DNA of 44,119 bases from a virus (IMGVR_UViG_3300009702_000005:1-44119), one strand, 5' to 3'. Counted from the first letter of the stretch, positions 1-44,119 are shown. The notes: generated by a model from the sequence alone, not told the origin. Numbers and translations: made by a program.

Positions 1-123
1 GATTCATAACTTTGGAGCGCGTATAAGATTAGGCATTCCGTTAGTTAGTCGGGATGGAAAAGGATACCTACCGATAGGGACAATCATACACATTCCCCAG
101 AGAGAGTTTATTGGGTTGTCAGA
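1..123. repeat. 123-bp direct terminal repeat, identical to 43997..44119. It is either the assembly overlap of a circular or circularly permuted genome, or true terminal redundancy.
   Basis: Base-by-base comparison: gattcataactttggagcgcg...ttgggttgtcaga occurs at both ends of the window. Confidence 0.95.
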
Positions 124-8312: not shown

Positions 8313-10786
8313 TGAGCCACGACAGACAAACGACTACGTTTACAAAGCACGGTCCTGTTACGGTATACCATGATAGAGGATATACAGAGGGGCCGGAAAT
8401 TCTTACGCTACGGCAGCGGGTGTCAGAGACTCTTTCACGTTTCTGGCATAGGTTGGTAGGACAGAGACCGAAGCCTGTTGTGTCTGTGGCGATTCTCATA
8501 GTAGCGCGTAACAATGGCCGCTATTTGAGCGAAGCTATTGAATCCGCATTACGCCAGACTGTTAGCTGTGAGATAGTATATTATGATGATGCGTCTACAG
8601 ATAACTCTGTAGCAATAGCTGAGCAGTACATAGATAGAGGGGTATCTGTATTACGTACTAAGGTTAATCTGGGAGTGTGCGAAGCTAGAAATCGTGCTCT
8701 TACTGCTGTGCATACAGACTACGTGGTTTATCTTGACGGCGACGATAGACTCTCCAATAACTACGTAGAGAAGCATCTATCGGTTATGTCTACTGGTGTG
8801 CCGTTTGTATATGGGAAAGCTCAACGATTCGGCACAGAAACAACAAAACTGTCCCCTCCTAAAATCTTTTCGCCTACACTATGGCACGGTAACTACATCG
8901 TAGTATCTGCCTTGATTCGGAGAGAACTATTATTAGCTGTAGGGGGTTGGGTACATACCGATGGAACGGTACATGAAGACTGGCATTTATTTCTACGCCT
9001 GAGTAGGTTAGGTACTCCCCAATATAGCGGTGCAGTTTTACACTACCGAAAACATGAAACACAACGTACACAGACAAGCACAACAGAACACCTATCGGCC
9101 ATTCGGCAAAGTCTAGCTAGGATAGTAGTAGGTATAGTCTATTCTGGAAGACTACCGATAGATGTATGCCTATCTCCGTTAGCTGAGTCTATTCCCAGAA
9201 ACCGCGTAGCGGTTGTGGTATTAAACGCTAGTGGTCAATCGTTGCAGTTATCAGACTATGGCGTATTTCAATCGGTTAAGATTGTACCGTGGAAGGTGTG
9301 TGGGAAACTTAATAGAGAGATTTCTGAGTTTTTAGCTGACGCATATACCTATATCATTACGCATACTACACAAGAAATTATTTGGTTTGTTGAAGACGAC
9401 ATAGTATTGTCCAAAGAGAATTGGAATGATATGTATGCGTCTATTACGAGTAATGACATACATGCTACAGGTCTGCAATATGTTAATCGTGGCCTACCGA
9501 CTGAGCTAGTTGGGGATGGTAAACATATTGGTACAGGTTGTTTTATGATGTGGCGATATGCAGCGCCTGTATGTATAGAATGTAAGGGTGACGATTACTA
9601 TGCACACGACTGGTGGCTATGTGATTATCTTGCAAGTACTGGTAGGCCGGTTAAAATACTTGATACTATATGTGGACACGCAAAGACAGCAACGCACATA
9701 CTTAGGCATACCGGGCTTCCCATAAAGCGCTGTACTATGGTGACACAAGCAATAGCCGATGGAGGAGGCCCACGTATTACTATGGAACTAGTTATGCGCT
9801 CAACGCATGATTGGGTTGTGTTTCTAGCATCTGGTACAACTGGACAACGGGTTGATCTAATAGAGGAGTTAGAACATAGTGGAGTTGAAGTAGTATGCTA
9901 TGGGGATATAAGACTTCCACATACTACACATTTTCAATCTAAGCGTGAAGCTATTAACTATGTTACGGCTGGTAGAGATACATTAGTAGGTTGGGGACCA
10001 CCAGTTAGAGACCATGATATATTAACTGGATTTTCTGGAAGAACTATTGCAGTAGCACATGGTAGTTGTGAGCATACTCGGAAGTTAATGCAGTCCGCGC
10101 TGGCGTCTGGGTATCGGGAATTCATCGGTGTCTCGGACCCGGCTACGGCAGTTTGCCCGAATGATCGATTGGTACTTACTATTAGGAACGGGGTAACTGC
10201 TGATAGACTTGCAGTCACATCGCTAATATCACGGCAGTCTAGCAAAGTTGCTGCGTATATAGGTAGGCGTACACCAGACAAGAATCCGTTAGTCATAGCT
10301 GATGCCGTGGATTATCTACCGAAAGAATGGTCGATTTTAATGGCCGGTGACGGTCTACTACTTCCAGTTAATCGTCAACGGGTTCGATTATGTCCTGATA
10401 GAGTAGACGTAGGTAATGTATACGCATCAGTGGATGTAGTGGTGATGGCGTCTCCGAGTGAGGGATGTTCTCTGACTGTGCTAGAAGCGTGGTATCTGGG
10501 AATTCCAGTGGTATCCACGAGAGTGGGTATAATACCAGAGTTAGAAGCTATACTAGGTCCAATGGTGTTTCCGTTGCCACAAAATCCTACTCCCAGACAA
10601 ATAGCTAAAACAATACAGGAAGCGCATACAGGAGACGTGACTGAAAGAGCTAAGAACTGGACTAGGCAGTATGGTATGGTAGACCGGATGATTCAAGAAT
10701 GGGACGGTTACCTATCATGGGAGGGTAGGGCAGTTGTGCAATACTGTCATAGTGGCATGTCAGATTGGCAGAGTATGCCAGATTGA
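8312..10786 (+). CDS. multi-domain glycosyltransferase (N-terminal GT2/GT-A, a second GT-A-like segment, C-terminal GT-B/GT4-like), 824 aa
   Basis: GT2 motifs VSVAILIVARNNGRYLSEAIESALRQT, YYDDASTD and the DXD motif YLDGDD. The middle segment has WFVEDDIV. The C terminus has SPSEGCSLTVLEAWYLGIPVVSTRVGIIPE (GT-B E-x7-E type). The start overlaps the previous stop (TAATG). Confidence 0.8.
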   Translation: MSHDRQTTTFTKHGPVTVYHDRGYTEGPEILTLRQRVSETLSRFWHRLVGQRPKPVVSVAILIVARNNGRYLSEAIESALRQTVSCEIVYYDDASTDNSVAIAEQYIDRGVSVLRTKVNLGVCEARNRALTAVHTDYVVYLDGDDRLSNNYVEKHLSVMSTGVPFVYGKAQRFGTETTKLSPPKIFSPTLWHGNYIVVSALIRRELLLAVGGWVHTDGTVHEDWHLFLRLSRLGTPQYSGAVLHYRKHETQRTQTSTTEHLSAIRQSLARIVVGIVYSGRLPIDVCLSPLAESIPRNRVAVVVLNASGQSLQLSDYGVFQSVKIVPWKVCGKLNREISEFLADAYTYIITHTTQEIIWFVEDDIVLSKENWNDMYASITSNDIHATGLQYVNRGLPTELVGDGKHIGTGCFMMWRYAAPVCIECKGDDYYAHDWWLCDYLASTGRPVKILDTICGHAKTATHILRHTGLPIKRCTMVTQAIADGGGPRITMELVMRSTHDWVVFLASGTTGQRVDLIEELEHSGVEVVCYGDIRLPHTTHFQSKREAINYVTAGRDTLVGWGPPVRDHDILTGFSGRTIAVAHGSCEHTRKLMQSALASGYREFIGVSDPATAVCPNDRLVLTIRNGVTADRLAVTSLISRQSSKVAAYIGRRTPDKNPLVIADAVDYLPKEWSILMAGDGLLLPVNRQRVRLCPDRVDVGNVYASVDVVVMASPSEGCSLTVLEAWYLGIPVVSTRVGIIPELEAILGPMVFPLPQNPTPRQIAKTIQEAHTGDVTERAKNWTRQYGMVDRMIQEWDGYLSWEGRAVVQYCHSGMSDWQSMPD

Positions 10787-18331: not shown

Positions 18332-18825
18332 AGATAGTTACAATAGACCCCGGCACTAAAACAACTGGCGTAGCTTTCTGGGATAGGGAAACATGGAAAG
18401 ACTTGGTGCCGCCTACTGACGTGTTTGCTATAGCGGCATCGTCTGCGAATAACTGGTATACGCGCATGGCTGGAATTATTGATGCTCTTGACGGCCTGTT
18501 TGCGGAGCGTACAGTATTACGAGCATACATTGAGTTACCTACGTTTATGCAGTCACACAAAGGACAAACAGCGGCAAAGTCTGGTAGCTTGGTCAAATTG
18601 TCGGCCATGTTTGGCGCGGTCTACATGAGTTGTCACAATATAGCAGCTAAGGTAAAACCAGTCCGAATTGTGGACTGGAAGGGGCAGCTACCGAAAAATG
18701 TAACGGAGCGTAGGATACGGAAACGGTTAGGCAATCTGGAACATGAGGGCGGTATTGGGGTGTCAGTTCCATCCGATTGTTGGGACGCTGTAGGAATTGG
18801 TTTGTGGGCAAAAGGGCATTTCTAA
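18310..18825 (+). CDS. RuvC-like Holliday junction resolvase, 171 aa
   Basis: N-terminal IVTIDPGTKTTGVAFWD and C-terminal DCWDAVGIGLW, which look like the RuvC-fold acidic residues. Confidence 0.7.
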   Translation: MAKSKGVEIVTIDPGTKTTGVAFWDRETWKDLVPPTDVFAIAASSANNWYTRMAGIIDALDGLFAERTVLRAYIELPTFMQSHKGQTAAKSGSLVKLSAMFGAVYMSCHNIAAKVKPVRIVDWKGQLPKNVTERRIRKRLGNLEHEGGIGVSVPSDCWDAVGIGLWAKGHF

Positions 18826-19013
18826 TGAGCGTTGAATACTACCCTGTAATTATTGATGAAGTTATCAAACTAACTAACTTAGCTGTGCTGGTAGACATAA
18901 ATGGCGAGGAAGTTTGGATTCCTAAGAGTGTCATTGACGGCAACGTAGGCGTATATAGTACCGAGATATACGTCGCTGAATGGTTCCTTGATAGAAAAGG
19001 GATTGACTACTAA
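18825..19013 (+). CDS. hypothetical protein, 62 aa
   Basis: TAATG overlap with the resolvase stop. The track extension from 18777 overlaps the resolvase. Confidence 0.45.
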   Translation: MSVEYYPVIIDEVIKLTNLAVLVDINGEEVWIPKSVIDGNVGVYSTEIYVAEWFLDRKGIDY

Positions 19014-19034: not shown

Positions 19035-19976
19035 ATGTCACACTACAGAACAGAACCGTGGGATTTTGTAAAGCACGGAGTTAGTCCTAGCTTTGTCAGT
19101 CAATTTTTGCGCTGCAAGTATACCACATATCTAAAGTACGTTGAGGGCTGGAAGTCAAATCGAACATCGGAACCGCTACAATTTGGTAGCGCAGTTCATT
19201 ACGTTTTCGAGCGGGCATACAAACACAAGACTGTACCTAGTAACAAGAAAATAGCTAAATGGCTTGCTAAGTATGAAAAAGCACATAGCGACGTGTTTAG
19301 TAATGAGCGGTATCAGGTCGCACTAGGCACAGCTAATGTAGTGCTCCAAGAATACTTTCGATATTACGCTAATGATTTCTCCCAGATGCAGGATGGTTCT
19401 TTAGTCTGGGAGGCAACGGAGCATAGGTTTGAATTGCCGGTCAATCTTGGAGCGCGTGATGGTCGAACAGTTAAACTAAACGGCATCGTAGACGGTATCT
19501 ATCGGCATACAGATGGTAGATGGATACTGGATACTAAGTGTAAGGGCAGAGTGAATCCGGGCGAGATTTTCGACGGTTTCCCTATGTCATTCCAATTCAA
19601 CGCTTATATGTACTATCTGTATAAACGCTACAATGAAGTACCTACGGGGGTGGTATGTAACGTAGTGCGAATTCCCCAGATAAAGCAGGGTAAGCAATCA
19701 ACTAGGGCTTATATGCAACGTGTGAAGGAAGACGTAGCTAAGAGGCCAGACTTCTACTTTATGCGCCCGTCTTACCGGATTACTAAGGACGAACTAAAGT
19801 ATTGGGTAAAACGCCAGTTACGCCCAATACTAATAGATATTGCAGATTGGGTGAATAATGACTACCAGCCACGATACGCTAACGAAACTGGTCTGATGGT
19901 CGGATATAGACAGAGCGATTATTTTGATGCGGTCTGTCAAGGCGACTTCACAACCTTAGTAAAGAAAGGTAAGTAG
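19035..19976 (+). CDS. PD-(D/E)XK (RecB/Cas4-like) exonuclease, 313 aa
   Basis: GIVDGIY....WILDTKCK (D...D-x-K) followed by a QFNAYMYY (QxxxY) motif. Confidence 0.65.
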   Translation: MSHYRTEPWDFVKHGVSPSFVSQFLRCKYTTYLKYVEGWKSNRTSEPLQFGSAVHYVFERAYKHKTVPSNKKIAKWLAKYEKAHSDVFSNERYQVALGTANVVLQEYFRYYANDFSQMQDGSLVWEATEHRFELPVNLGARDGRTVKLNGIVDGIYRHTDGRWILDTKCKGRVNPGEIFDGFPMSFQFNAYMYYLYKRYNEVPTGVVCNVVRIPQIKQGKQSTRAYMQRVKEDVAKRPDFYFMRPSYRITKDELKYWVKRQLRPILIDIADWVNNDYQPRYANETGLMVGYRQSDYFDAVCQGDFTTLVKKGK

Positions 19977-22512: not shown

Positions 22513-24583
22513 GCAGCGTATAGTAGCTGTTGATACTGAAACAACAGGACTACACGTCATGCAGGGGGACCGGCCTTTCGCGGTGGGTATGTTGTGGGAT
22601 GATGGAACAGAAGAATACTATGATTGGCCGGTTGACCCATATACGCGCAAAGTATCAATTAGCACGGCAGCATATAAGCGTGTCAAGAAAGTGATGGAAG
22701 ACAAAAACACAATCAAGGTATTCCATAACGCTAATTTTGACCTGTTGATGCTACTATCAGGGTTTGGTATTGGCTTCCGTGGAAAGATAGAGTGTAGCTT
22801 AATCAAAGCTCAGGTTGTGTTGTCTGGGAGACAGTCATACAAACTAAAGGCGCTAGCACATGATCTACTTGGTATACATAATGTAGATGAAAGGGAACTG
22901 AAAGACGCTGTAAAGTCTTTGCGTAGAAATCGAAAGATTGCTAATACCTATTCATTAGGTAGTACCGTAGAGGAAGATTATTGGTTGCCTAAACATGAGG
23001 ATAACGCTAATACTTTATGCCGCAAGTATTGTCTACTTGATGTGAAGCGAACGCTATTACTGAATGCACTACTTGACAATTTAATAAAGGGTAAGAAAAA
23101 CAAGGGGATACGAAAGGTATATAGGCGTGAAATGAAGCTGCTTAAAGTATGTCTCAGGATGCAGCAAACAGGCATTAGGGTAGATATGTCGGAGATACGT
23201 AAACAAATAGATACGGCTAAAGAGACAGCACAGTTTGAATTAGAAGCGCTGCAAACATACTACAATAATATGGTAGGAAAATCAACCAAACCATTCAATC
23301 CCGGTAGTCCCACACAGGTTGCTAAATTGTTGTATGATGGAGCAGGGTTGAAGATAAAGAAACGAACAAAATCAGATAATCCGTCAACAGACATAGAAGC
23401 TCTACGACCATACTTAGACCATCCAGTAGTCATGTCGTTACTACGCTGGAAAGCAGCTAGTAAATCTACTAGCTCATTCTTCGGAAAATACCTATCGCTC
23501 GCATTAGCTGACCGCAATGGAGACTGGTATCTTTACCCAGAATTCCGTCAGAATCGGGCAATCACTGGCCGTATGAGCATGTCTGAGCCGAATCTGCAAC
23601 AAGTATCGCACGGTAAGACGGCAGCACAGAAAGGGGCCGTACCAATTTATGCCCGCCGTCCGTTCATCCCCAGAACAGGTAAGGTGTGGCTGTGCGCGGA
23701 CTACTCACAGCTTGAAGCTCGCATCTTTGCATACTTAGCGCAAGAGCCTACCATGTTGCAGGCATTCGCTGATGGCCGTGACATGCACGCTGAATGTGCT
23801 GATAAATGTTTCGGTGGACGAAGGTATTATTATTTAGGTATGCGAATACTAATGACACGTTTAGGGTTTACTGGAACAGGAAGTGACCCTAAAGCTAAGG
23901 ATGTGTTAAGACAACTAGGACTACACAAGCAGAAGAAACAACGTGTTCGTAAATGGTTAATGAAGATGCTCTATGCCCGCAATTTTTCAATAGTATCTGT
24001 TGAGCGTGAATTGTTTGGAGATAGTGTAGCACGTAATAGAGCTAAGAATATCCTATTTCTTAAAACATATGGTGGTGGAGCATATCGGGCATCGAAAGAG
24101 ATAGGGTGCAGCTACGATGAAGCTAAAGAATTACTCAGTGGATATGATACAGAATTTCCAAAACTAAAGGCTTACCAGCGTAATGTGATAGCATATGCAA
24201 AAGAGCATAGACATATCAATACACTGTATGGTCGAAGAATTACAGTACAGAATCCTTTTGTGTACAAGGGTAAGGTTGTTGATCCAGCGTACAAAGCTGT
24301 TGACTATTCAATTCAGTCTGTTGCAGCCGACCTGATAAAACTTGCAATGATTGATATTGATAAGTGGTGCCGTAGACGGAAAGACCTTGATATTAAGATG
24401 CTACTACAGGTTCACGATGAACTTATCATAGAGATAGCTGAGAATCATTGTAAGCCGGGAATTCTACGACGAATCAAAGATATAATGGAAGACTCTCACT
24501 TAGATGGAATGGTAGCTACACCAGTTGAGTTGTCGCTATGTCGTAAGACGTGGGCAGAAAAGGAAGACGTAGAATTAAACTAG
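22502..24583 (+). CDS. family A DNA polymerase with 3'-5' exonuclease domain, 693 aa
   Basis: Exo I VAVDTETTGL, Exo II FHNANFDL, Pol motif A CADYSQLEARIFAYLAQE, motif B RNRAKNILFLKTYGGG, motif C LLQVHDELIIE. Confidence 0.9.
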   Translation: MKSRQRIVAVDTETTGLHVMQGDRPFAVGMLWDDGTEEYYDWPVDPYTRKVSISTAAYKRVKKVMEDKNTIKVFHNANFDLLMLLSGFGIGFRGKIECSLIKAQVVLSGRQSYKLKALAHDLLGIHNVDERELKDAVKSLRRNRKIANTYSLGSTVEEDYWLPKHEDNANTLCRKYCLLDVKRTLLLNALLDNLIKGKKNKGIRKVYRREMKLLKVCLRMQQTGIRVDMSEIRKQIDTAKETAQFELEALQTYYNNMVGKSTKPFNPGSPTQVAKLLYDGAGLKIKKRTKSDNPSTDIEALRPYLDHPVVMSLLRWKAASKSTSSFFGKYLSLALADRNGDWYLYPEFRQNRAITGRMSMSEPNLQQVSHGKTAAQKGAVPIYARRPFIPRTGKVWLCADYSQLEARIFAYLAQEPTMLQAFADGRDMHAECADKCFGGRRYYYLGMRILMTRLGFTGTGSDPKAKDVLRQLGLHKQKKQRVRKWLMKMLYARNFSIVSVERELFGDSVARNRAKNILFLKTYGGGAYRASKEIGCSYDEAKELLSGYDTEFPKLKAYQRNVIAYAKEHRHINTLYGRRITVQNPFVYKGKVVDPAYKAVDYSIQSVAADLIKLAMIDIDKWCRRRKDLDIKMLLQVHDELIIEIAENHCKPGILRRIKDIMEDSHLDGMVATPVELSLCRKTWAEKEDVELN

Positions 24584-24654
24584 GACCGTAACTCAATGGT
24601 TAGAGTGCCGTCCTTATAAGACGGTGGTTGCGGGTTCGAGTCCCGCCGGTCCTA
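24582..24654 (+). tRNA. tRNA-Ile, anticodon UAU (reads AUA); no encoded CCA
   Basis: Manual cloverleaf: acceptor AGGACCG/CGGTCCT, D stem ACTC/GAGT, anticodon stem CCGTC/GACGG with loop CTTATAA, T arm GCGGG-TTCGAGT-CCCGC. The 5' end overlaps the polymerase TAG by 2 nt. Confidence 0.85.
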
Positions 24655-24676
24655 ATAACTATGAGAGGGGTAGACT

Positions 24677-24880
24677 ATGGAAGACCATGAATTCTGGATG
24701 TGGGCAGACAAAGTAGTTGTTGATAACATGGGATCAATTACAGTAGGCTACTTACCAACAAAGGAAATTTGGCGAATCAGCTTGATTCCTTGTTTAGGTG
24801 AAGAAATTTATATAGAGGATAGGTTTAGGCATATAGCATACAAGCGTGCTATGTCTGCCTATAAACTACAAGTCAAGTAA
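24677..24880 (+). CDS. hypothetical protein, 67 aa
   Basis: GAGAGGGG SD upstream of the ATG. Confidence 0.5.
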   Translation: MEDHEFWMWADKVVVDNMGSITVGYLPTKEIWRISLIPCLGEEIYIEDRFRHIAYKRAMSAYKLQVK

Positions 24881-24916
24881 ACGCTCAATACTAACTTGTT
24901 TCTGGGGAGAAATGCT

Positions 24917-25354
24917 ATGACGCGCAGAAGCCATAAAGTTCCTACGGATGCTGGAATGCAGAGAACGCCGGAAGATAACTACATTCGTAAGGCTGAATTG
25001 ATTCGAGTAATTGACGGCGATACAGTTGAGTTGCGGGTAGACTTGGGGTTCCGTACATCCTATACGGGGCCGTTTCGTCTCGCCCGTATAAACGCTCCCA
25101 AGTTAGGGGATGCGGACGGTAGAGGAGTAGACGCGGCTGTAGCATTAAGTGGTCTGCTAACGTCTGAGCTATTCAGTAGCGGCACAGGAGTAAGTAAACA
25201 CATTTGGATTCGGTCCCACAAGCGAGGAAAGTTCCGCTATCTGGCCGAAATATATGTCGCTATTGACGGTGGCATACGATTTGTCAGTGACGTAATGGTG
25301 TCGTTAGGTCACGCTAAGTATTGGTCCGGGTACGGACCCAAACCGGGAGAGTAA
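24917..25354 (+). CDS. staphylococcal nuclease (SNase/thermonuclease)-like nuclease, 145 aa
   Basis: VIDGDTVELRV....FRLARINAPK matches the SNase pattern (v)DGDT...(v)RL.GIdaPE. GGGGAGA SD. Confidence 0.55.
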   Translation: MTRRSHKVPTDAGMQRTPEDNYIRKAELIRVIDGDTVELRVDLGFRTSYTGPFRLARINAPKLGDADGRGVDAAVALSGLLTSELFSSGTGVSKHIWIRSHKRGKFRYLAEIYVAIDGGIRFVSDVMVSLGHAKYWSGYGPKPGE

Positions 25355-25636: not shown

Positions 25637-26071
25637 ATGAAGTCAATTCATCAGCAATATATAGAATTGTTTATGGGCGCTATGGGGCAGTATGTCCCGA
25701 ACGGTCCCACTAAGATTACCCCAGAAACCGCGCGGTTACGTGCAAGACTAATTATGGAAGAAGCGCTGGAAACTATTGCAGCACTAGGGTATCGACCAGT
25801 TATAAAGAATCAGGATGTGAACTTAGTACAACGTACTAAGCCTAATTTCATCGAAGTAGTAGATGGTTGTTGTGACCTTAGTGTAGTCACAATAGGTACA
25901 TTATCTGCTTTAGGTGTACATGATTTGGATGTATTGAGTGAAGTAGATGCTAACAACATTATGAAGATAGCGAATGCTACACTGAGAGACGACGGTAAGA
26001 TAATTAAAGCCGCCAACCATCCAAAGCCAGACCTTGCAGGCGCTATCCGTACCCAGAACAGTACCACGTAG
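25637..26071 (+). CDS. MazG-like / all-alpha NTP pyrophosphohydrolase candidate, 144 aa
   Basis: RLRARLIMEEALETIAALGY ... VVDGCCDLSVVTIGTLSALGV ... NNIMK fits the EExxE...D helix pattern of the family. Confidence 0.5.
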   Translation: MKSIHQQYIELFMGAMGQYVPNGPTKITPETARLRARLIMEEALETIAALGYRPVIKNQDVNLVQRTKPNFIEVVDGCCDLSVVTIGTLSALGVHDLDVLSEVDANNIMKIANATLRDDGKIIKAANHPKPDLAGAIRTQNSTT

Positions 26072-26080
26072 GAGAATACC

Positions 26081-26368
26081 ATGTTGGTTATAGCCTGTAA
26101 TGCACGTGATACTAGGATTGAACGGTGCGGAGATAACTATCTTATCACGCTTCCCGAATCATCTAAGGTAGCTATAGATTCGGTTAGGCGTAGGCCATTC
26201 ATACAAGTCATTGATAGTGTCGATGTTAGTATAAGCAGTAAGGGTACTATACTATTCAATCGTAAGCTAGACAGAAAGTCGGTGAGTAATGAAGGAATCG
26301 GAACTTCCGAAAAGGATACTACCCCTAATAGATCACGGATTCGTAGCTCTAGGGATAACAGGGAGTGA
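26081..26368 (+). CDS. hypothetical protein, 95 aa
   Basis: ORF with AGGAGAA upstream. It overlaps the primase start by 80 nt, so its 3' extent is uncertain. Confidence 0.35.
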   Translation: MLVIACNARDTRIERCGDNYLITLPESSKVAIDSVRRRPFIQVIDSVDVSISSKGTILFNRKLDRKSVSNEGIGTSEKDTTPNRSRIRSSRDNRE

Positions 26369-28400
26369 AGTCTATGGCTGTTGTCCGTTCTGTGGCCGTG
26401 AAAAATTCTATGTTAATTCGGATACGGGACAATGGAACTGCAAGAGTGCTAAGTGTAACCGTAGCGGCAATATGCACACGTTCCTTGATGCTGTGGTCGA
26501 TCACTACGGACCGATAGACCGCGAGAAACGGGAAAAGCTGGCAGAGCTACGGGGCATCCCCCAGAAATCATTTAAGCCCCATCGAATCGCTTGGAATGGT
26601 ATAGAATATCTGATTCCCGTCCGTTCCCCGACCGGCCACATACAAGATTTAGGCCGATATTCCGGCAGCGGTAAGGTCAAGGCAACTCGCAAGGGGTTAG
26701 GGCCGGGAACAGGCTTATATAACGCTGACAAGCTGGTTGAGGCTTCACCTGATGTGCGTGTTTATGTCTGTGCTGGATTCTGGGATGTCGTGGCGCTGGA
26801 AACGATTCTACGGACGGCCGGTAAACCCGGAGTTGTAGTTGGCGTACCGGGGGAGGGCGTATTTAAGCGCGAGTGGATTGGTCTGTTCAGTGGTCGAGAC
26901 GTAACGCTGTGTTATGATAACGATGAAGCTGGTGATAAAGGCATGGCAAAGGTAGGTGGTTGTACTGGGTATCCTAATATAGCAAGTAAGCTAAATGAAG
27001 GGTTACTACGTGGAGTGGCTAAACGGATACGTTATACCTGCTGGCCTATCTCACTTAGTAAATCCGTAGATATAAACGATCTATGGAAACAGGAAGGTAA
27101 AGCTGGATGGAAACTGCTAAAGCAGATGGTGGGAGACTATCATAGACGTGATATAGCGCTAACTGAGCAGAAAGGAACCAAGAAACGGAAGCGTAAGAAA
27201 GGGAAAAAGGTAGCTAGGGTAGGATTCGAGCAGATTCGTAGCGCATACGGTCAGTGGCTACGTATGACCCCAGATATGACGGCAGCGCTTCGACTTGTCT
27301 TCGCTGTTTCTGGCACTACGGTCTTACATGATGATCCTATCTGGTTGTACCTTGTTGGTCCGTCAGGCTGTGGAAAAACTGCCCTACTATCTTCGCTCCG
27401 TAACAGTGACCGTTGTGTGTATCGTAGCTCCCTTAGCAAGGCCGCATTAGTTTCTGGGATAAGAGGAACGGACCCTAGCTTGATTCCAGAGCTAGACGGG
27501 AAGTGTTTCATTACGAAGGATTTTACGGAAGTTTTGCAGACTAATGAAGCTGAACGTAGAGAGATATTAGCTGTATTGCGTGGGGTATTTGACGGCTACA
27601 TCGACAAGTCATATGGAACGGGCGTCTTCCGATCCTACGAGAGTCACTTTAACTTTATTGCTGGTGTCACGCCTATTATTCATCGGTATACGGATCAAGG
27701 GGCAGCGCTAGGCGACAGGTTTCTGAAATTTGATATGGGTAAAGGTAGAGCATTAGCGCAGCCACGTCAGTTAATGGCAGCGTTAGATGGATTGGAATTG
27801 AAACAGAAACAGGATAGTGACCTAGCTGATATAGCAGAAGCGTATATAGAGCAGTTGTATGAGCTAGCTGAGAAACGTATGGCTAAGTTTGAAACTCCAC
27901 GATGGCTTAAAGATAAGCTGATACTAATGGGGGAATTTATCTCTTTGATACGGACTAACGTAGAGAAAGACTATCATGGGGAGTTAGTCTACCGGCCTGA
28001 GAGTGAAATGCCTACCCGTATGGTTAAGCAGCTAGCCAAGTTAGCGGCTGGCCTATGCTTGATTGACGGTAAGGAAATGCCAGATCGGAAAATCTATTCA
28101 GAAATCCTTACTGTGGCAATGGATACGGCAACCGGGTTCCGTCGAGAAGTAGTAGAGACACTACTAAATGGACAGAAGCGCGGTATGACTGTCTCTGAAA
28201 TTGAGGGCATATTGAAATTGCCAGTATCTACGCTGCGAGACAGACTACACGAACTTTACGTGCTAAGGCTTGTGGAGCGTAGAAAGAAAAAACGGAAGTC
28301 TAAGGGTAATGGGATGGAGTTAGGTCCACGTCCTGATTACTGGCGTCTATCGGGCCGATTAAGAGAATTGTGGAACGAATTACAACAAGGGGTAGAGTAA
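26289..28400 (+). CDS. bifunctional primase-helicase (zinc finger + TOPRIM + P-loop NTPase + C-terminal wHTH-like), 703 aa
   Basis: CPFCGREKFY..WNCKSAKCNRSGN zinc finger. TOPRIM motifs VCAGFWDVVALE and YDNDEAGDKG. Walker A LVGPSGCGKTAL. Confidence 0.8.
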   Translation: MKESELPKRILPLIDHGFVALGITGSEVYGCCPFCGREKFYVNSDTGQWNCKSAKCNRSGNMHTFLDAVVDHYGPIDREKREKLAELRGIPQKSFKPHRIAWNGIEYLIPVRSPTGHIQDLGRYSGSGKVKATRKGLGPGTGLYNADKLVEASPDVRVYVCAGFWDVVALETILRTAGKPGVVVGVPGEGVFKREWIGLFSGRDVTLCYDNDEAGDKGMAKVGGCTGYPNIASKLNEGLLRGVAKRIRYTCWPISLSKSVDINDLWKQEGKAGWKLLKQMVGDYHRRDIALTEQKGTKKRKRKKGKKVARVGFEQIRSAYGQWLRMTPDMTAALRLVFAVSGTTVLHDDPIWLYLVGPSGCGKTALLSSLRNSDRCVYRSSLSKAALVSGIRGTDPSLIPELDGKCFITKDFTEVLQTNEAERREILAVLRGVFDGYIDKSYGTGVFRSYESHFNFIAGVTPIIHRYTDQGAALGDRFLKFDMGKGRALAQPRQLMAALDGLELKQKQDSDLADIAEAYIEQLYELAEKRMAKFETPRWLKDKLILMGEFISLIRTNVEKDYHGELVYRPESEMPTRMVKQLAKLAAGLCLIDGKEMPDRKIYSEILTVAMDTATGFRREVVETLLNGQKRGMTVSEIEGILKLPVSTLRDRLHELYVLRLVERRKKKRKSKGNGMELGPRPDYWRLSGRLRELWNELQQGVE

Positions 28401-29581: not shown

Positions 29582-30565
29582 ATGTGCAAGGTGTTAGCTG
29601 TTGCTCTGTTGAGCTTGCTATGGTGTAAGGTAGGGGTTGCTCAGTACGTCACTGAGATACGAGCTAAGGTAGTTGGCTGTACTAGTCCGTTCGGGTGAAG
29701 TGGAGTTAGTCACGGCAATACCGTAGTTGGAATAAACTATGGTACTGCCGTTCCTATCGGTCAGATAGGTGGAAAGACGTTTCTGATTACAGCCGGGCAT
29801 GTAGTGCAGTATGTAACATCCCCAGAAATAGGTGTGCGCGGTGAGTGGGCGAAGGTGAAAATCGTCGCGGTCTACACTAAAAACAACATAGACCTTGCTA
29901 TAGTAAGCTATGCCGGAAAGCTGGATAGCTTTTGTCTTGCTAAGTCTGTAGCTAGATTGGGAACGGTTGTTACTCTAGCATCTATCCGCGATAAAAAGTA
30001 TGCTTGGAGAGATTCGCGTATAACAGCTAACTCTACAGAACAAGCCGGTAGTCGTGGTCGATTTAAGGCTGAGTTAGTTGAAGCTGGAATAGGTGTAATC
30101 TCAGGCGAATCCGGGGGAGCAATCCTTAATAAGAGCAAACAAGTTGTGGGCATCATCGTAGCCGGTACAGACGCCAGAACGGTAGCGGTAGACTCTGTGG
30201 CTGTTCGTCGTTATGTTTCGCGGATTTTGGGTAGACTTCCCTCTTGTGGGACGCTACAATTACCGCAACGGCCGAAGATTGTGCAGCGCAAGCCGCCAGT
30301 GAAAATAGCCCCAATACCGCCGAGGGAGACCAAACAACTGCAACCGCCAACAGCGTTAAAGGAATTGCAGGCACAGCTTCAAGCTACCCAAAAGGAAGTT
30401 GTGAGGCTACAACAAGAGCTATCAGCTATGGCAGCTAGGCAAGCCAAACCCCTAAAGGTTAGGATACTCACTACTGATGGTAAGTTGGTAGATGAGAAGC
30501 AGTACAAGCCCGGAGAGACAATAGACTTGTATTTGGTTCCGCAGGGTAGCGGCAAAGGAAGGTGA
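29582..30565 (+). CDS. secreted trypsin-like serine protease with a Pro-rich linker and C-terminal coiled coil, interrupted by an in-frame TGA at 29696..29698
   Basis: ATG with AAAGGAACGG upstream. Signal-peptide-like MCKVLAVALLSLLWCKVGVAQ. Same frame across the TGA. Catalytic triad motifs LITAGHVV (His codon 29798..29800), DLAIV and GESGGAI. There is no in-frame ATG/GTG/TTG between the TGA and the GTG at 29804, which lies after the His. Confidence 0.65.
29696..29698 (+). other. in-frame TGA inside the serine protease reading frame (..SPFG*SGVSHG..)
   Basis: Codon-by-codon reading from ATG 29582. Confidence 0.9.
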
Positions 30566-31971: not shown

Positions 31972-32052
31972 GTATAGCTAGTACGTGAACACCAGAATGC
32001 TATAGGGCCATAGCGTCTAACTATGGTCCTAATCTACATAGGAGCGGAACTA

Positions 32053-32409
32053 ATGAAGACTCACAAGACACCGGGACTGGTAATAGTCGCATTGCTTGCA
32101 GCGTATCTGCTTGGAGCAGCTACACATAGCACAATGCTACGCGCTGCTAATGGCATAACTGCATTTGATGATCTAGTATGCCATACGTTCACAGCTTCAA
32201 GGTATGCTGTTATTGGAGACGACAAGACGGGTGATGTAGTTGCGAAAGCAACTAGACAATACACTACTCTAGCGGTATCAAACAGGAGTGGTAAGGTCAG
32301 TTGTGGTTTCGTTGTTCAGGGTGGAGTAGCCTATCTTGGCTGGAAAGATAAAGACGGCACACATAGGCTACGAATGGACGCTCTTGACAAACTGAGCAAA
32401 AGACCGTAG
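32053..32409 (+). CDS. signal-anchored / secreted hypothetical protein, 118 aa
   Basis: AGGAG 8 nt upstream of the ATG. N-terminal MKTHKTPGLVIVALLAAYLLGAATH. Confidence 0.5.
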   Translation: MKTHKTPGLVIVALLAAYLLGAATHSTMLRAANGITAFDDLVCHTFTASRYAVIGDDKTGDVVAKATRQYTTLAVSNRSGKVSCGFVVQGGVAYLGWKDKDGTHRLRMDALDKLSKRP

Positions 32410-32421
32410 TATTGTGGCGTT

Positions 32422-32880
32422 ATGCCTACGCTACCAAAGACAACTCGCAAAGACGACTACTACACTGGTAGGCGCGCCAACCTATCCAAGCGTGAAGTTC
32501 ATTCCGCGCTAGAGAAATCAAGGGGGCGCGTCTATCTTGCCTCCCAGATGCTCGAATGCCATCCAAACGCGATCTACCGTTACATGCAACGGTATCCAGA
32601 GACTAAAGCGTTCTGCGAGGAAATTCGAGAACGAGCTATTGAAGTCGTTGAAGATAAACTATTTGAAGCGGCTGAAGATGGTAAAGCGTGGGCAGTTCAA
32701 TTTTTCCTGAAATGCCAAGCTAAGCATAGAGGCTACGTCGAACGGCAAGAGCATAACGTGACAGCCGATATAGCTGCTACGCTCACTGTTGAGACTGTGA
32801 GGGAGGCATTAAGTGAGCTTAGGAATCTTGGGGCAAGTCAAGCCCTCAGAATTGCTAAAGGCAATGGCGAGTCCGGGTAG
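32422..32880 (+). CDS. terS: terminase small subunit candidate, 152 aa
   Basis: It lies immediately upstream of, and overlaps, terL. HTH-like segment SRGRVYLASQMLECHPNAIYRYMQRY. Confidence 0.55.
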   Translation: MPTLPKTTRKDDYYTGRRANLSKREVHSALEKSRGRVYLASQMLECHPNAIYRYMQRYPETKAFCEEIRERAIEVVEDKLFEAAEDGKAWAVQFFLKCQAKHRGYVERQEHNVTADIAATLTVETVREALSELRNLGASQALRIAKGNGESG

Positions 32881-34240: not shown

Positions 34241-34401
34241 CACGCGAAGACGACATACTTAAAGATATAGGCCGAACTAAGCGAACTATCTTGTTCGTAG
34301 TTAGATGGCTTACCGCAATAGCTAAGGGACTAGCTACTGTGATAGCTTTTGTAACGCGCAAAGGGAAAGCAAAGGATACTACACATAATGGAAAACTCTA
34401 A
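34237..34401 (+). CDS. small single-TM protein candidate, 54 aa (below the ORF-track cutoff)
   Basis: ATGA overlap with the terL stop. Sequence MTREDDILKDIGRTKRTILFVVRWLTAIAKGLATVIAFVTRKGKAKDTTHNGKL. It overlaps the portal start by 14 nt. Confidence 0.35.
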   Translation: MTREDDILKDIGRTKRTILFVVRWLTAIAKGLATVIAFVTRKGKAKDTTHNGKL

Positions 34402-37400
34402 AGACCTACAAGAGCAGCTAACAGTTGATAAGTTGAAACTTCAACTACAGATGCTTGAAGCGCAGAAACAACAAATACAAGCGGCCGGTCTATTAGAAAC
34501 AACCGGATGGGGACAACGTGTTCCCCAGAGTGAGTATCCGTGGAACGATTCATACAAAGACTTTGGGCTTGGTGCGCCGTCTACTGGTATTGTCACGCGA
34601 GTAGATGATAGGACAGACCGTAAATATCTACCAGTTTATCGTACTGAATACGACTTGCGTAGAATGCGAGCACGTCATAGGTCTCTCTTTCATTTTGTTT
34701 CTGTGATTAGTGGTCTGTCTGATACACTGGTGAACTACATAGTAGGTGAAGGATTCACTGTTGAGATAACACCTAGCAAGCAATTTGAGAGTGACCCGGA
34801 AGCTAGGCGTATATCCAATACGCTACAACTATTAGTTGACGACTTTCTTGAATCCATTGATTTCAACGGTGGGTTGGATAACGACATAGTAAACAGCACT
34901 ATCACAGATGGAGAAGTGTTTTTAGCTATGTATCCAGACTCTACTGGTAAGCGTGGCGGCTTTCCATCAGTACGTAAGATAGAGCCTGATGAAGTTACAG
35001 AGCCGCAAAACCCGCTACCGATTGAGCGATGGCTTGGTACGCTTGACCAATTCGAGAGCTTTTGGGATTTCGGCGTACACACTAGATTCTGCCCAGAGCT
35101 AAAGCGGAATGACGTAGAAAATCCGCTAGGCTATCATGTAGTCTTTAATGACGGCGGAACTGAGTGGGATTACATCCCAGAAGATCGAATGATTCATGTT
35201 AAGCGTAATGTCACGCGCAGAGCTAAGCGCGGAGTGAGCGATATATTAGCAGTCGAAGTTGAAGTTGATAAGACTGCTAAATTACGCGAGCGTACTGCTG
35301 ATGGGGCAATTGCACAAGCTGCTATTGCGTTTATTCGCCAGTGGAACGCTACTAAGTCTGACGTTGAGTCTTTAGTTAGTGAGCAGTTTGGTATTGATGT
35401 ACAACGGCCTAAAGACAGAGGCCTATCAACTAAGCGGGCTGTAGCGTTGGACCGGACAAGAATCATTGATATTCCGCAGGGAGCACAATATCAGGCTGGT
35501 CCGCTTGGTACACTACGTAGTCCGGTGTTTGTTGAAGTTGCTCAGTTTCTTTTGCGGCTTGCGGCTGTTCGTTGGGCAATGCCGGAGTTTCTTATTAGTG
35601 GTGATGCGAGCAATAATAATTTTGCATCTACACTAGTTACTGAGTCGCCATTTGTAAAAGCACGTGAGCGGGATCAGCGATTCTTTAGTAAGCCAATTAA
35701 GGAACTCATTGAAAAGTTTATACGCATCTACCATAGTACGCATAGGTTTGATCGTGTGGCTACTGAATGGAATGTGTTTCGGCGATTGTTCAATATAGTA
35801 ATTACGCCAAGCGAAGTAGCTACAAGGGATAAGCAAGCGGCAGCACAGTATAATAAAGTGTTGAATGATAGTGGAATCAAAAGTAAGAGAACGTGGGCAT
35901 CTGAGGAAGGGCTTGACTACGATGCTGAACAAGAAAATATACAGTCAGAACCGCAACAGGCATCGTCTATGCCGGGCTTTGGTGGTAGCTCACAAAGCCC
36001 TTTCCCTGAGAGTGTGATAGCAGGTATTGAAGCTATCCGCTACCATAATTCCAGTGTAGGATTGTCCGAAGGAACGTCTGGTTGTGGTACTGGCAAAGGG
36101 GGATTTGGTAACGATAATACTTGTGCTGTTGGGCATGGCAGTAATAAGAAAGACCTATTGGGTAGAGACGAGACTGATGTAACGCTGTCTGGTAAACCTG
36201 AGATAGAATTAAGATCAGAAAATGAGGATTATAAAAGAGCATCTAAAGTATTACTCGGCAAAGAAATATCGTCAGAAGACATAGCTAATCTTGTAGGTGC
36301 GCCTGATACAAGCATTGCTCATGTGACGGCAGGGTTTGCAAGTCTTGATAAGAACCAAGAAATAAGAACTTACTACCGCGATCAGTCTTTAGGGATACGG
36401 GCGTCTAGGACAATAAGTTTAGACGAATTTGGACATCCTATAATTAGAAATGAGGAGTTTATAATTTCACCGAGTAAGGAAGGTAAGGGTATTGGTACTA
36501 GAGTCTTTGCTAATGAAGTTGCTGAAGCATCTAAAGCAGGAATATCTAGTATACGTACAAATGCAGCACGAAATAGCGACCTGAATGGGTATTATACATG
36601 GCCGCGACTAGGCTACGACGGTGAGTTGCCAGAGTCTACACAGACAAAAGTACGCGATGCAGTATTCACAGGAAAACTCCCGCATAGTCCTACACTGGAT
36701 AGGGATGGAAACATCCATGTATCAGATTTAATGAAAACAGAGAAAGGTAGGAAGTGGTGGAAGGAAAATGGACATGGGTTAAATGTAGAGTTTGATCTTT
36801 CTAAAGGTTCACAATCGCGCAGAGTGTTACGCAAGTATCTTCAAAAGCGTTTTGGAGATACTATGGGAGTCACTGAATCTCAGACTCCCGCAGGCGTCCC
36901 ACAAGACCCGCAAGACCCGCAGCAAAGGCTGGAATACCCCGATACCCTTACCCCAGAGGAAGATTCGATTCTCGCGTCTGTCTGGGATGAAATAGCGGCT
37001 GAAGATGGCGCTATCCAAGAGGGTACTACAGGCTGTGGTACTGGCAAAGGGGGATTTGGCACAGGCAATACTTGTGCTGTTGGGCATGGGGGGCCGAAGA
37101 CTAAGGTATCGCCAGAGGAGGAAGCGCGTCTTAAAGCGTTACCGACAGACGAGAAGCTGAACATCATAACCGGCAACGCTGCTAAGAGGGCGGTACTTCT
37201 ACGTAACCGGTTGATTGAGAAACATGGCTTTACCTATCAACCATTGAGCGATACAGAGCCGGATAGAGGGTTTGTAGTTAGTATCTTTCCGCAAGATAGT
37301 TTGGTGTTAGAGGGGCAAAGCGCTACGCCTAAGATAATCAAGGATTACATTGTTGACCATGCTAGACGGTTTACCAATACTAAGATTAAGGTTGGTGGTT

Positions 37401-37702
37401 GGTACAGTACAGACGATGATAAGACATTCCTTGATGTGAACGTGGTATTAAAGGATAAAGCTAAGGCAATTCGTCTAGGTAAGAAACACGATCAAATTTC
37501 TATCTTCGATTTACTCACTGGTGAGACTATCTTTATTGGTGGTACTGGCGGAGTACGTGAGAGTGATAATCGCGGTACACCGATCAAATTTACTATGCTC
37601 ACGATTGATCCTAGTACAATGTCTGAAGCTGAAATTGAGACCGCAGCGGAGAAACTCGCGAAGCAATTGAACACGTTCCGTACAGAAGGGCAGGCAGCAT
37701 AG
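34388..37702 (+). CDS. portal protein fused to a ~580-aa C-terminal extension (GNAT-like domain plus an unknown domain, each preceded by a Cys/Gly-rich motif), 1104 aa
   Basis: Position directly after terL. The N-terminal ~520 aa is portal-sized. The extension contains IISPSKEGKGIGTRVFANEVAEASKAGISSIRTNAARNSDLNGYYTWPRLGYD (GNAT motif A-like) and two copies of EGT(S/T)GCGTGKGGFGxxNTCAVGHG. Confidence 0.7.
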   Translation: MENSKDLQEQLTVDKLKLQLQMLEAQKQQIQAAGLLETTGWGQRVPQSEYPWNDSYKDFGLGAPSTGIVTRVDDRTDRKYLPVYRTEYDLRRMRARHRSLFHFVSVISGLSDTLVNYIVGEGFTVEITPSKQFESDPEARRISNTLQLLVDDFLESIDFNGGLDNDIVNSTITDGEVFLAMYPDSTGKRGGFPSVRKIEPDEVTEPQNPLPIERWLGTLDQFESFWDFGVHTRFCPELKRNDVENPLGYHVVFNDGGTEWDYIPEDRMIHVKRNVTRRAKRGVSDILAVEVEVDKTAKLRERTADGAIAQAAIAFIRQWNATKSDVESLVSEQFGIDVQRPKDRGLSTKRAVALDRTRIIDIPQGAQYQAGPLGTLRSPVFVEVAQFLLRLAAVRWAMPEFLISGDASNNNFASTLVTESPFVKARERDQRFFSKPIKELIEKFIRIYHSTHRFDRVATEWNVFRRLFNIVITPSEVATRDKQAAAQYNKVLNDSGIKSKRTWASEEGLDYDAEQENIQSEPQQASSMPGFGGSSQSPFPESVIAGIEAIRYHNSSVGLSEGTSGCGTGKGGFGNDNTCAVGHGSNKKDLLGRDETDVTLSGKPEIELRSENEDYKRASKVLLGKEISSEDIANLVGAPDTSIAHVTAGFASLDKNQEIRTYYRDQSLGIRASRTISLDEFGHPIIRNEEFIISPSKEGKGIGTRVFANEVAEASKAGISSIRTNAARNSDLNGYYTWPRLGYDGELPESTQTKVRDAVFTGKLPHSPTLDRDGNIHVSDLMKTEKGRKWWKENGHGLNVEFDLSKGSQSRRVLRKYLQKRFGDTMGVTESQTPAGVPQDPQDPQQRLEYPDTLTPEEDSILASVWDEIAAEDGAIQEGTTGCGTGKGGFGTGNTCAVGHGGPKTKVSPEEEARLKALPTDEKLNIITGNAAKRAVLLRNRLIEKHGFTYQPLSDTEPDRGFVVSIFPQDSLVLEGQSATPKIIKDYIVDHARRFTNTKIKVGGWYSTDDDKTFLDVNVVLKDKAKAIRLGKKHDQISIFDLLTGETIFIGGTGGVRESDNRGTPIKFTMLTIDPSTMSEAEIETAAEKLAKQLNTFRTEGQAA
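36083..36138 (+). repeat. 56-nt direct repeat, copy 1 (51/56 identical to 37034..37089), encoding CGTGKGGFG..NTCAVGHG
   Basis: Aligned by eye. Identical 26-nt and 22-nt blocks flank an 8-nt divergent core. Confidence 0.9.
37034..37089 (+). repeat. 56-nt direct repeat, copy 2
   Basis: See copy 1. Confidence 0.9.
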
Positions 37703-39945: not shown

Positions 39946-39965
39946 CACACACACACACACACACA
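39946..39965. repeat. (CA)10 dinucleotide microsatellite in the scaffold-capsid intergenic leader
   Basis: gcgCACACACACACACACACACAtacgcaca, read directly. Confidence 0.95.
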
Positions 39966-40725: not shown

Positions 40726-40785
40726 TAGTAGTAACAACTGACAGCTAACAATCAACAAATGTGAACGGGATAGGGAGAGAGTACA

Positions 40786-41985
40786 GTGTGGCGCAATCTT
40801 AGAGAAGCTCAGGCGAGTCGGCGACTGTATGAAGCTGCACAAGCTGACGGAACACCGAACCGATTCTTTGCAGAGCTTGCAACAGCGCTGCAAGAGGGAC
40901 AGCTTGACCGGTCAAGATTCTCAATCCGTAATACCTTTCGACAATTCGTCGAAGACGGCAACGAGATGATCGAATCTTTCTCTCCCAGAAATCAAGCTGA
41001 CGGAATGCGATTGCTTGAAGCTGGTGGAGCAGTTGATACTACCGCATTCAGCAACATTACGGGACAGTTTGTTTACTCAACTGTGCTCGAACAATTCCAG
41101 TCGCCTACGTTTATTGCTGGTGATTTGGCGCGTACTGTACCAACCGAATTCAATGGGGAGAAGATTCCCGGTGTTGGCGGGCTTGGTGATGCTACTAAGC
41201 CTATTGGAGAGGGCGAGGATTACCCGACTGCTGGCGTTGGCGAGGAGTGGATTGAAACGCCTGAAACTGATAAGCATGGCGTTATTGTGCCGGTTACGAA
41301 GTAAGCTATTTTCTTCGACCGCACAAGTCTTGTGCTTGATCGTGCTGGTAAGGTTGCAGAAGCGCTTGCTATCCGCAAAGAGAAACGTGTACTGGATGTA
41401 GCGCTTGGTATCACTACTAGCTACGTCAGAAACGGTGCTACTGCACAAGCAACATACGGTAATACGCACACCGAAGGAGACTTCGATAACCTTGTTGCTT
41501 CTAATGCGTTAGTGGATTACACTGACGTTGAAACGGCATTACTCGCGTTTGATTCGATTACCGATCCGAATACGGGTGAGCCGGTTCTGATTAGTGTTGC
41601 TGATGTGGTTGTGCCGAGTGGTTTGCTATTCACAGCCGCGCGAGTCTTTGAAGCAACTGGAATTGAACAAGGAACTATTTCCGCATCTGCGCCGCGCACC
41701 ATTGGCGGTAATCCGTTAGTTAGTCCGGCTGTGAAACGTGGTAATTCCTTTTCGATTACTACTAATCAGTACGTCGCCAACCGAACGGGTAATCAGACTA
41801 CGTGGTTTATTGGCGATTTCAAAGCTGCATTTCAATACCGTGAAAACTGGCCGGTCAGCGTAGTTCAAGCGCCGGAAAATAGTCACGACGATTTTCACCG
41901 CGATATTGTATCGCAGTTCAAAGTCTCAGAACGTGGTACTCCGGCAGTCATTGAGCCGAGAAAGGTCGTTAAGTGTACTGCCTGA
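40786..41985 (+). CDS. HK97-fold major capsid protein (Mu gpT-like organisation), about 398 aa, interrupted by an in-frame TAA at 41302..41304
   Basis: The two track ORFs (40786..41304 and 41332..41985) are in the same frame. The sequence reads GEGEDYP...TDKHGVIVPVTK*AIFFDRTSLVLDRAGKVAEALAIRKEKRVLDVALG, which is one continuous capsid strand/spine-helix pattern. ATAGGGAGAGAG leader, GTG start. Confidence 0.7.
41302..41304 (+). other. in-frame TAA inside the major capsid protein frame, at a position where related capsid proteins often have a polar or acidic residue
   Basis: gtt acg aag TAA gct att ttc ttc gac. GAA to TAA would be a single substitution. Confidence 0.9.
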
Positions 41986-42043
41986 TATAATAGGTAGTCG
42001 CTAGCATGGAACGGGGATTTCATCGGACAATAGGGAGAGAGAC

Positions 42044-43634: not shown

Positions 43635-44119
43635 ATGGGAGCGCTAACTAATGATTTAGGCACACAGATAGTTGATGGACTCAACATAGTAGTGAAGCAA
43701 CTTAGAAATGATGTGCAATCATTACAGTTTCGTGAGACATTATTATCTTTGTTGCCGACAATTCAACGGGATCACCAAACACGATTCGATAATCGAACAA
43801 GCCCAACCGGGGAGGCGTGGGAACCGTGGCATTGGACAAAGATGACCAAACAAGGGCCGTTAGAGCATCCTACGCTCGAATATAGCAAACGACTCAGAAG
43901 TAGTTTGCGCATTGGTGGGCGAGATAATGTATCGGACATAACAGTTGACGGAACTAAGACAACGCTAACATGGGGTACGGCAGTTCCGTATGCGAGGATT
44001 CATAACTTTGGAGCGCGTATAAGATTAGGCATTCCGTTAGTTAGTCGGGATGGAAAAGGATACCTACCGATAGGGACAATCATACACATTCCCCAGAGAG
44101 AGTTTATTGGGTTGTCAGA
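43635..44119 (+). CDS. Mu gpG-like virion morphogenesis / tail completion protein, 5' part. It continues across the terminal repeat to 187, giving 182 aa in total.
   Basis: FDNRTSPTGEAWEPW ... TWGTAVPYARIHNFGARI ... IPQREFIGLS matches the family pattern (W.pl ... YA..hqfG ... ipaRpFlGl). Confidence 0.75.
   Translation, partial: MGALTNDLGTQIVDGLNIVVKQLRNDVQSLQFRETLLSLLPTIQRDHQTRFDNRTSPTGEAWEPWHWTKMTKQGPLEHPTLEYSKRLRSSLRIGGRDNVSDITVDGTKTTLTWGTAVPYARIHNFGARIRLGIPLVSRDGKGYLPIGTIIHIPQREFIGLS
43997..44119. repeat. 123-bp direct terminal repeat, identical to 1..123
   Basis: See the first feature. Confidence 0.95.

Follow-up and report, generated by a model that had tools for sequence, protein, structure and literature searches.

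In the virus contig IMGVR_UViG_3300009702_000005, whose whole stretch of 44,119 nucleotides is referred to here as the window, the gene for the major capsid protein is interrupted by an in-frame TAA that is very probably a non-programmed, private G-to-T lesion. The gene lies on the plus strand at 40786..41985, belongs to the HK97 fold (PF25209, Phage_capsid_4) and holds 399 sense codons if the internal stop is counted as Glu. Its frame opens with a GTG start codon at 40786 and runs for 172 codons to the TAA (codon 173, 41302..41304), after which a further 226 codons (41305..41982) follow in the same frame up to the TGA at 41983-41985; translated across the internal stop, the peptide reads ...HGVIVPVTK-stop-AIFFDRTSLVLDRAGK... 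The arrangement of two ORFs of 172 and 226 codons parted by a single TAA had been described with exact coordinates in an earlier reading of the DNA, made without database searches (the sequence-only reading). In the mechanism proposed here, a single G-to-T transversion at 41302 would have turned the codon GAA of an invariant Glu-173 into an ochre stop in one assembled genome, and the gene as written would yield a fragment of 172 residues that ends before the spine helix and would be unable to form a capsid. For the 226 codons downstream of the TAA there is no start signal.

The two ORFs are one gene and not chance neighbours, since the joined product fills a single Pfam domain and matches from relatives span the TAA. 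The joined product scores 64.5 bits against PF25209 (cut-off 27) and covers profile positions 7-261 of 262; the N-terminal half by itself reaches 22.3 bits, under the 27-bit cut-off, and the C-terminal half alone has no Pfam match. When the relatives' ORFs were searched against the window by tblastn, 15 HSPs crossed the TAA without a break. No extra nucleotides lie between the halves, where the TAA stands in for one conserved codon. The only in-frame start after the TAA is the GTG at 41332, ahead of which no SD-like sequence was found, in agreement with the earlier statement that the downstream half lacks an SD of its own. An uninterrupted ORF for the whole fold is thus missing from the window, in which the TAA occupies codon 173, and the window copy is a null allele of a member of the PF25209/HK97-fold family. 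Frameshifting was considered as a cause of the interruption and rejected.

Upstream of the capsid start codon, an RBS-like motif, ATAGGGAGAGAG, is located at 40771..40782 on the plus strand, and an identical copy precedes the next gene at 42031..42042. In both cases the 12-mer lies 3-7 nt 5' of the start codon, while TAGGGAGAG occurs at just two places in the window, namely upstream of the capsid gene and of the next gene. Judged by its sequence and position, ATAGGGAGAGAG is probably a strong RBS-like (or late-promoter-like) element shared by the two genes.

A search of a large protein collection returned 806 homologues of the capsid protein, and length, domain content and column composition were counted in the 120 that were listed. 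These proteins are 362-411 aa long and every one carries PF25209. Alignment with capsid homologues, a check that the sequence-only reading had proposed, identifies the residue at the TAA column as Glu in 32 of 32 aligned homologues, within the motif VTKEAIFFDRT, and in 120 of the 120 listed, in which strict invariance is confined to 13 columns, this one included. The conservation extends to the DNA: five of five more distant relatives have GAA at this codon, and a codon-degenerate scan for PVTK-x-AIFFDR, run over IMG/VR and a JGI metagenome collection of 241 million records, found 71 IMG/VR contigs with GAR at the position and none with TAA, TAG, TGA or TGG among the IMG/VR or JGI metagenome contigs.

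The position of the residue within the fold was read not from the window's own sequence but from P0002, the nearest homologue with an intact gene (69% identical), which was modeled with AlphaFold2. This model has a pLDDT of 87.5 and a pTM of 0.83, and in a Foldseek comparison against the PDB it matched the HK97-fold capsids of D3 and phiXacJX1, HK97 gp5, GTA particles and encapsulins with a probability of 1.00; spine helix, P and A domains and extended loop are all present in it. Together with the PF25209 match, it upholds the assignment of the gene to an HK97-fold major capsid protein in the sequence-only reading. The Glu is found where a long beta-strand (163-172) joins a short helix (173-177) that is followed by a 27-residue helix (181-207), which supports the earlier statement that the stop falls within the conserved core, at the signature of strand and spine helix. 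Mapped onto this model, the N-terminal fragment (40786..41301, plus strand) would comprise the N-terminal helices, the extended loop and the strand before the spine helix, and the remainder of the gene the spine helix along with what is left of the P and A domains. The 172-residue product would accordingly have neither the spine helix nor the greater part of the P and A domains, and is presumably non-functional.

Other assemblies of the same phage were reached through the window's gene call for a peptidase: contig k141_1329830 of ENA assembly ERZ27249683 and several Logan contigs of SRR6056608. The ENA contig measures 44,135 bp, has a terminal overlap of 141 bp and is rotated differently from the window. 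At the site of interest the ENA and Logan siblings read ACGAAG-GAA-GCTATT and encode an intact capsid protein of 399 aa. The flanks of the changed codon are identical to the sibling, with no inserted or deleted sequence, and the proposal in the sequence-only reading of a single G-to-T change from GAA thus agrees with both the siblings and the five more distant relatives. That reading had also named reads with a sense codon at this site as an observation that would speak against it; in the sibling assemblies, GAA does stand there.

The whole ENA contig was rebuilt and compared with the window over ~44 kb. The two are 99.95% identical and differ by 23 substitutions (18 transitions and 5 transversions) and one CA-repeat indel. 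Among the coding changes, 14 of 22 are synonymous, as opposed to ~30% expected (p = 0.0012); nine of these synonymous changes are clustered as a single tract in the primase gene, and once they are left out the excess loses its significance. The G-to-T at 41302 is the sole nonsense change between the two genomes and the sole difference in the capsid gene, while the other differences look like natural strain variation filtered by selection. The TAA, absent from a genome 99.95% identical to the window and from every relative scanned, is private to the window's assembly. Its introduction after assembly was considered and rejected, since the deposited JGI/IMG record of 44,119 bp already contains the 172-aa product (VWRN...PVTK, P0124); it is the only record with a truncated product.

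Several searches for further copies of the window's strain or its close relatives gave negative results. Exact look-ups with the capsid half-proteins (with an M start) and with variants of the portal and of a 151-aa protein that are specific to the window revealed no second assembly on record. An exact 50-mer at the site, with N at 41302, had no match in JGI metagenome contigs, IMG/VR or GTDB, whose searchable content apparently lacks the contig of the window itself. Neither megablast nor tblastn found close relatives among deposited phage genomes.

Some of the differences between the siblings deserve mention for themselves. A (CA)10 microsatellite at 39946..39965, intergenic between a gene for a 423-aa protein in scaffold/protease position and a gene for a 245-aa protein, exceeds its counterpart in the ENA and Logan siblings by one CA unit. 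In the primase-like gene, a run of nine differences from the ENA sibling, all of them synonymous, is packed into 91 bp (26657..26747; also 26459), and Logan contig _303623 ends exactly at 26748, the edge of this tract. The pattern suggests either a recombination tract or two haplotypes co-occurring in SRR6056608.

The proposal that the capsid gene is naturally split, or interrupted by an intron or an intein, has next to no probability, and nothing apart from the two ORFs speaks for it. At the junction zero extra nucleotides are found and the TAA replaces exactly one conserved codon; the second half has neither an SD nor a good start. The break moreover falls inside a single domain, at the junction of strand and helix. 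In the sequence-only reading, homologues that encode the two halves as separate genes had been named as the finding that would overturn it. No such case was encountered: the capsid gene is a single ORF of ~400 codons in all 120 aligned homologues and at all loci of relatives examined, and in the metagenomic relatives with a syntenic head module the capsid ORF is always single, with 396-400 codons.

A different class of explanation holds that the stop is decoded. The sequence-only reading had raised dependence on ochre suppression or readthrough, together with an altered prfB, and had linked the TAA to a second in-frame stop elsewhere in the genome. In 59 genes of the window, TAG serves as terminator 25 times, TGA 18 times and TAA 16 times. 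TAA ends both genes just upstream of the capsid gene, one of them at exactly the length of its homologue, and the TGA of the capsid gene itself follows the conserved C-terminus ...VKCTA. Since TAA and TGA are both ordinary terminators here, neither of them is reassigned. An alternative genetic code with genome-wide reassignment of a stop codon, for which the bare presence of in-frame stops in two genes might be cited, can therefore be given hardly any weight: terminator use is balanced, gene ends coincide with homologue lengths, and in-frame internal stops amount to one TAA and one TGA in ~41 kb of coding sequence. TAA is thus neither rare as a terminator nor found in-frame in many genes, as in recoded phages, and it is not common to the relatives. 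In a survey of phage recoding, the clades described, with suppressor tRNAs, are recoded at TAG or TGA, and none is named that is recoded at TAA (bioRxiv 10.1101/2021.08.26.457843).

The decoding equipment of the phage points in the same direction. Its only tRNA is a tRNA-Ile with anticodon UAU (24581..24655, plus strand), whose anticodon loop C-U-UAU-A-A reads AUA; the phage genome encodes no suppressor tRNA, as the sequence-only reading had correctly remarked of this tRNA. An Rfam search found no RNA elements other than the tRNA, and a Pfam search found no release-factor domain among the 30 larger ORFs. The tRNA gene is positioned directly 3' of the DNA polymerase gene. Among the Ile codons of the genome, ATA comes first (307, vs. 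289 for ATT and 163 for ATC), and the tRNA fits a role in codon-usage compensation.

The stop might still be decoded by means outside the phage genome, if an ochre suppressor tRNA of the host, a weak release factor or readthrough dependent on context supplied enough capsid protein. In favor of this explanation, a 44-kb genome that is otherwise intact contains two in-frame stops, and the second of them, a TGA at 29696, is inherited across siblings and compatible with a stop that is tolerated or read through. We nevertheless regard it as unlikely on several grounds. A programmed stop is expected to be conserved, and with the TAA missing from a 99.95%-identical genome and from all relatives, nothing has selected for it and a programmed reading is not supported; neither the stop nor its context is conserved in the relatives. 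The short product of a programmed readthrough site should in addition be complete and functional, whereas the 172-aa fragment stays below the Pfam cut-off, ends before the spine helix and would presumably have no function of its own. The natural ochre suppressors that are known insert Gln, Lys or Tyr, at a position where an invariant Glu is needed. TAA and TGA together end 34 of the 59 genes, and efficient suppression would lengthen much of the proteome, including the C-terminus of the capsid protein itself. UAA followed by G is a strong termination context in E. coli, and the phage brings no suppressor of its own. Finally, each particle requires hundreds of copies of the capsid protein, a demand that low-level readthrough would meet poorly.

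The second stop lies in a gene for a trypsin-like peptidase (29582..30565, plus strand), in which TGA occupies codon 39 (29696-29698); it is not part of the capsid lesion. The gene opens with ATG at 29582, preceded by AAAGGAA, begins with a sequence resembling a signal peptide, and continues in frame through the TGA into the trypsin-like domain. The first internal start (GTG 29804) comes only after TAGHV, the motif of the catalytic His, and the Trypsin_2 score in Pfam rises from 25.2 bits, under the cut-off, to 34.2 bits, over the cut-off, when the parts are joined. The TGA sits in a non-conserved linker ~22 residues before the trypsin-like domain. A search of a big protein collection identified one distant homologue (P0122), which is uninterrupted and aligned from residue 5 to 321, and in which the residue at the TGA falls in a gap, so that the alignment gives no ancestral residue. 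No relatives of the peptidase were found in viral contigs. The sequence-only reading had counted this gene as an interrupted protease gene: the TGA is real, and the gene encodes a trypsin-like peptidase and not a prohead protease, an identity rejected because the gene is positioned upstream of the terminase genes and is trypsin-like.

The peptidase TGA is identical in the ENA and Logan assemblies. With the TGA common to the siblings and the TAA private, the two stops have separate histories, the TGA being a feature of the lineage. The argument that both stops are RF2 codons is weak, since TAA is read by RF1 as well as by RF2. The peptidase gene may be either a tolerated pseudogene or a gene with a leaky UGA (UGA-A). 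It is conceivable, though very improbable, that the lineage as a whole lives with leaky termination, the peptidase TGA being read through at a low level and a host suppressor or weak release factor being strong enough for working capsids to be made despite the ochre codon at the invariant Glu, so that the TAA genotype could dominate one sample. Among the options listed in the sequence-only reading, a defective or minority genome and a sequencing error thus stay live, and ochre suppression or readthrough has lost ground.

The window is a complete, circularly assembled siphovirus-type genome of ~43,996 bp and not a decaying prophage in a chromosome, given that a comparison of its ends reveals a 123-bp exact terminal direct repeat (43997..44119 = 1..123) and that one tail gene wraps across them. 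All genes are on the plus strand. Pfam matches comprise a tail tube protein, a tail chaperone, a lambda-type portal, a large terminase, a family A DNA polymerase with exonuclease, an SNF2 helicase, a PD-(D/E)XK nuclease, AAA_24, a DNA methylase and a fused GT2+GT4 glycosyltransferase. The capsid gene is placed within a head-morphogenesis module whose order (terminase, portal, 319-aa, 423-aa in scaffold/protease position, 245-aa, capsid, connector and tail genes) is syntenic with that of relatives, and tblastn with the relatives' ORFs detected no frameshifts or other stops in the structural module.

The TAA has features of a simple nonsense mutation or base error: it is one base away from the sense codon of the relatives, is accompanied by no indel, and is private to one assembly. 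It is a serious though less favored possibility that the phage in the sample has GAA and that the T is a wrong base, arising from damage of the 8-oxoG type, an error duplicated by PCR or a path of low coverage. G-to-T is the classic artefact of oxidative damage during library preparation, and the change is a single transversion of precisely this type. Both other assemblies of the phage read G, the capsid gene contains no other change, and the exact protein look-ups retrieved no second assembly with the T allele. A consensus without a capsid in an otherwise intact and complete genome is biologically awkward. Nor is a stop produced by a random error far-fetched, as ~3-4% of random single-base changes in coding sequence here create one. 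On the other side, no frameshifts are seen elsewhere, and where the sibling otherwise differs, the changes are for the most part synonymous transitions. De Bruijn assemblers retain k-mers that recur and resolve bubbles in favor of the branch with more coverage, so that an error in a single read seldom ends up in a contig.

That the T at 41302 is a real null allele, carried by a defective variant and complemented by wild-type siblings, has in our judgment an even chance of being correct, and within the non-programmed reading we estimate that it takes slightly more than half of the weight, the artefact taking the rest. The lean toward a real allele is based on the absence of signs of poor quality in the rest of the contig and on the 123-bp overlap. 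This overlap fits a de Bruijn assembly with a k-max of 123, which we take to be the MEGAHIT setting used at JGI, and under which a base in the contig needs repeated k-mer support from reads. In this account the T would most likely have been present in the sampled DNA as a recent null allele, and the defective variant would spread only together with co-infecting wild-type siblings that supply the capsid protein in trans. Intact genomes nearly identical to the window exist in the ENA and Logan assemblies. A capsid-null genotype would be unusual as the assembled, and hence normally the majority, path of a lytic-type phage.

Compared with known systems, the lesion is of the same kind as the classical ochre mutations of phage head genes and is in this respect an ordinary, familiar kind of event. 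As in laboratory nonsense mutants of T4 gene 23 and lambda gene E, one base change creates a stop in the major capsid gene while the rest of the genome is intact, and viability depends on suppression or complementation in trans. The T4 and lambda mutants were selected in the laboratory on suppressor hosts, whereas the phage described here is uncultivated and represented by a metagenome assembly in which the stop may be a base error. There is also a likeness to defective or "cheater" genomes that have lost a trans-acting structural gene whose product a co-infecting wild type can supply; classical defective interfering genomes, however, carry deletions, while here the lesion is a point stop, and the intact siblings are known from other assemblies. 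Recoding within or at the end of a capsid gene is familiar from the UGA readthrough of the Q-beta coat/A1 gene and the frameshift of T7 gene 10A/10B. The signals of Q-beta and T7 are conserved, lie after a complete coat protein and yield a minor extended product; here, by contrast, the stop is unconserved and cuts the fold at residue 172 of 399.

An in-frame stop in a structural gene is likewise shared with recoded phages such as Lak and crAss-like phages, in which TAG is read as Gln or TGA as Trp (PMC9523058). In recoded phages many in-frame stops of the same kind occur, the codon concerned seldom serves as a terminator, a suppressor tRNA is often encoded, and the stops are common to relatives (bioRxiv 10.1101/2021.08.26.457843). 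The window differs in each of these respects, with one TAA, frequent use of TAA as a terminator, no suppressor tRNA, and GAA in the sibling. The capsid TAA should therefore not be counted as evidence of stop-codon recoding or of dependence on a suppressor. The finding has a bearing on annotation, since in the JGI record the capsid gene is split and a 172-aa fragment is listed; the correct form is the 399-aa protein with Glu-173, as in the ENA record. If the T is the majority base in its sample, the window would represent a natural capsid-defective "cheater" at high frequency in an environmental phage population, which is of modest interest. The TGA inherited in the peptidase gene is the more curious lead and is separate from the capsid TAA.

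A number of further observations concern the remainder of the genome. The terminal overlaps of 123 bp in the window and 141 bp in the ENA contig fit circular de Bruijn assemblies at k = 123 and k = 141, respectively. Base 43996, just 5' of the terminal repeat, differs from the sibling and changes K to R in a Phage_tail_S-like tail gene. Besides the capsid gene, several pairs of ORFs lie in the same frame with a single stop between them, namely 5685..7304 / 7308..8312, 18777..19013 / 19035..19976, 24677..24880 / 24896..25354, 25637..26071 / 26081..26368 and 32023..32409 / 32422..32880. No HSPs of relatives cross the stops of these pairs, the relatives' loci covering the structural module only and allowing some of the pairs to be tested, and the ENA gene calls keep the pairs separate. 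They look like ordinary abutting genes.

The portal gene (34388..37702) has 1104 codons in the window, as against 452 aa in one relative and 646-698 aa in the equivalent ORFs of the two closest relatives, one of which is cut by the end of its contig. Two copies of a Cys/Gly-rich motif, EGTxGCGTGKGGFGxxNTCAVGHG, are encoded at nt 36080 and 37031 (aa 565 and 882). Each copy precedes one of two extra C-terminal modules, and different relatives match different modules, from which it would seem that cargo domains have been fused to the portal in modular fashion. The ORF at 8312..10786, located where the tail module ends, encodes a protein of 824 aa in which a family-2 glycosyltransferase is fused to one of family 1/4; the location is unusual for such an enzyme.
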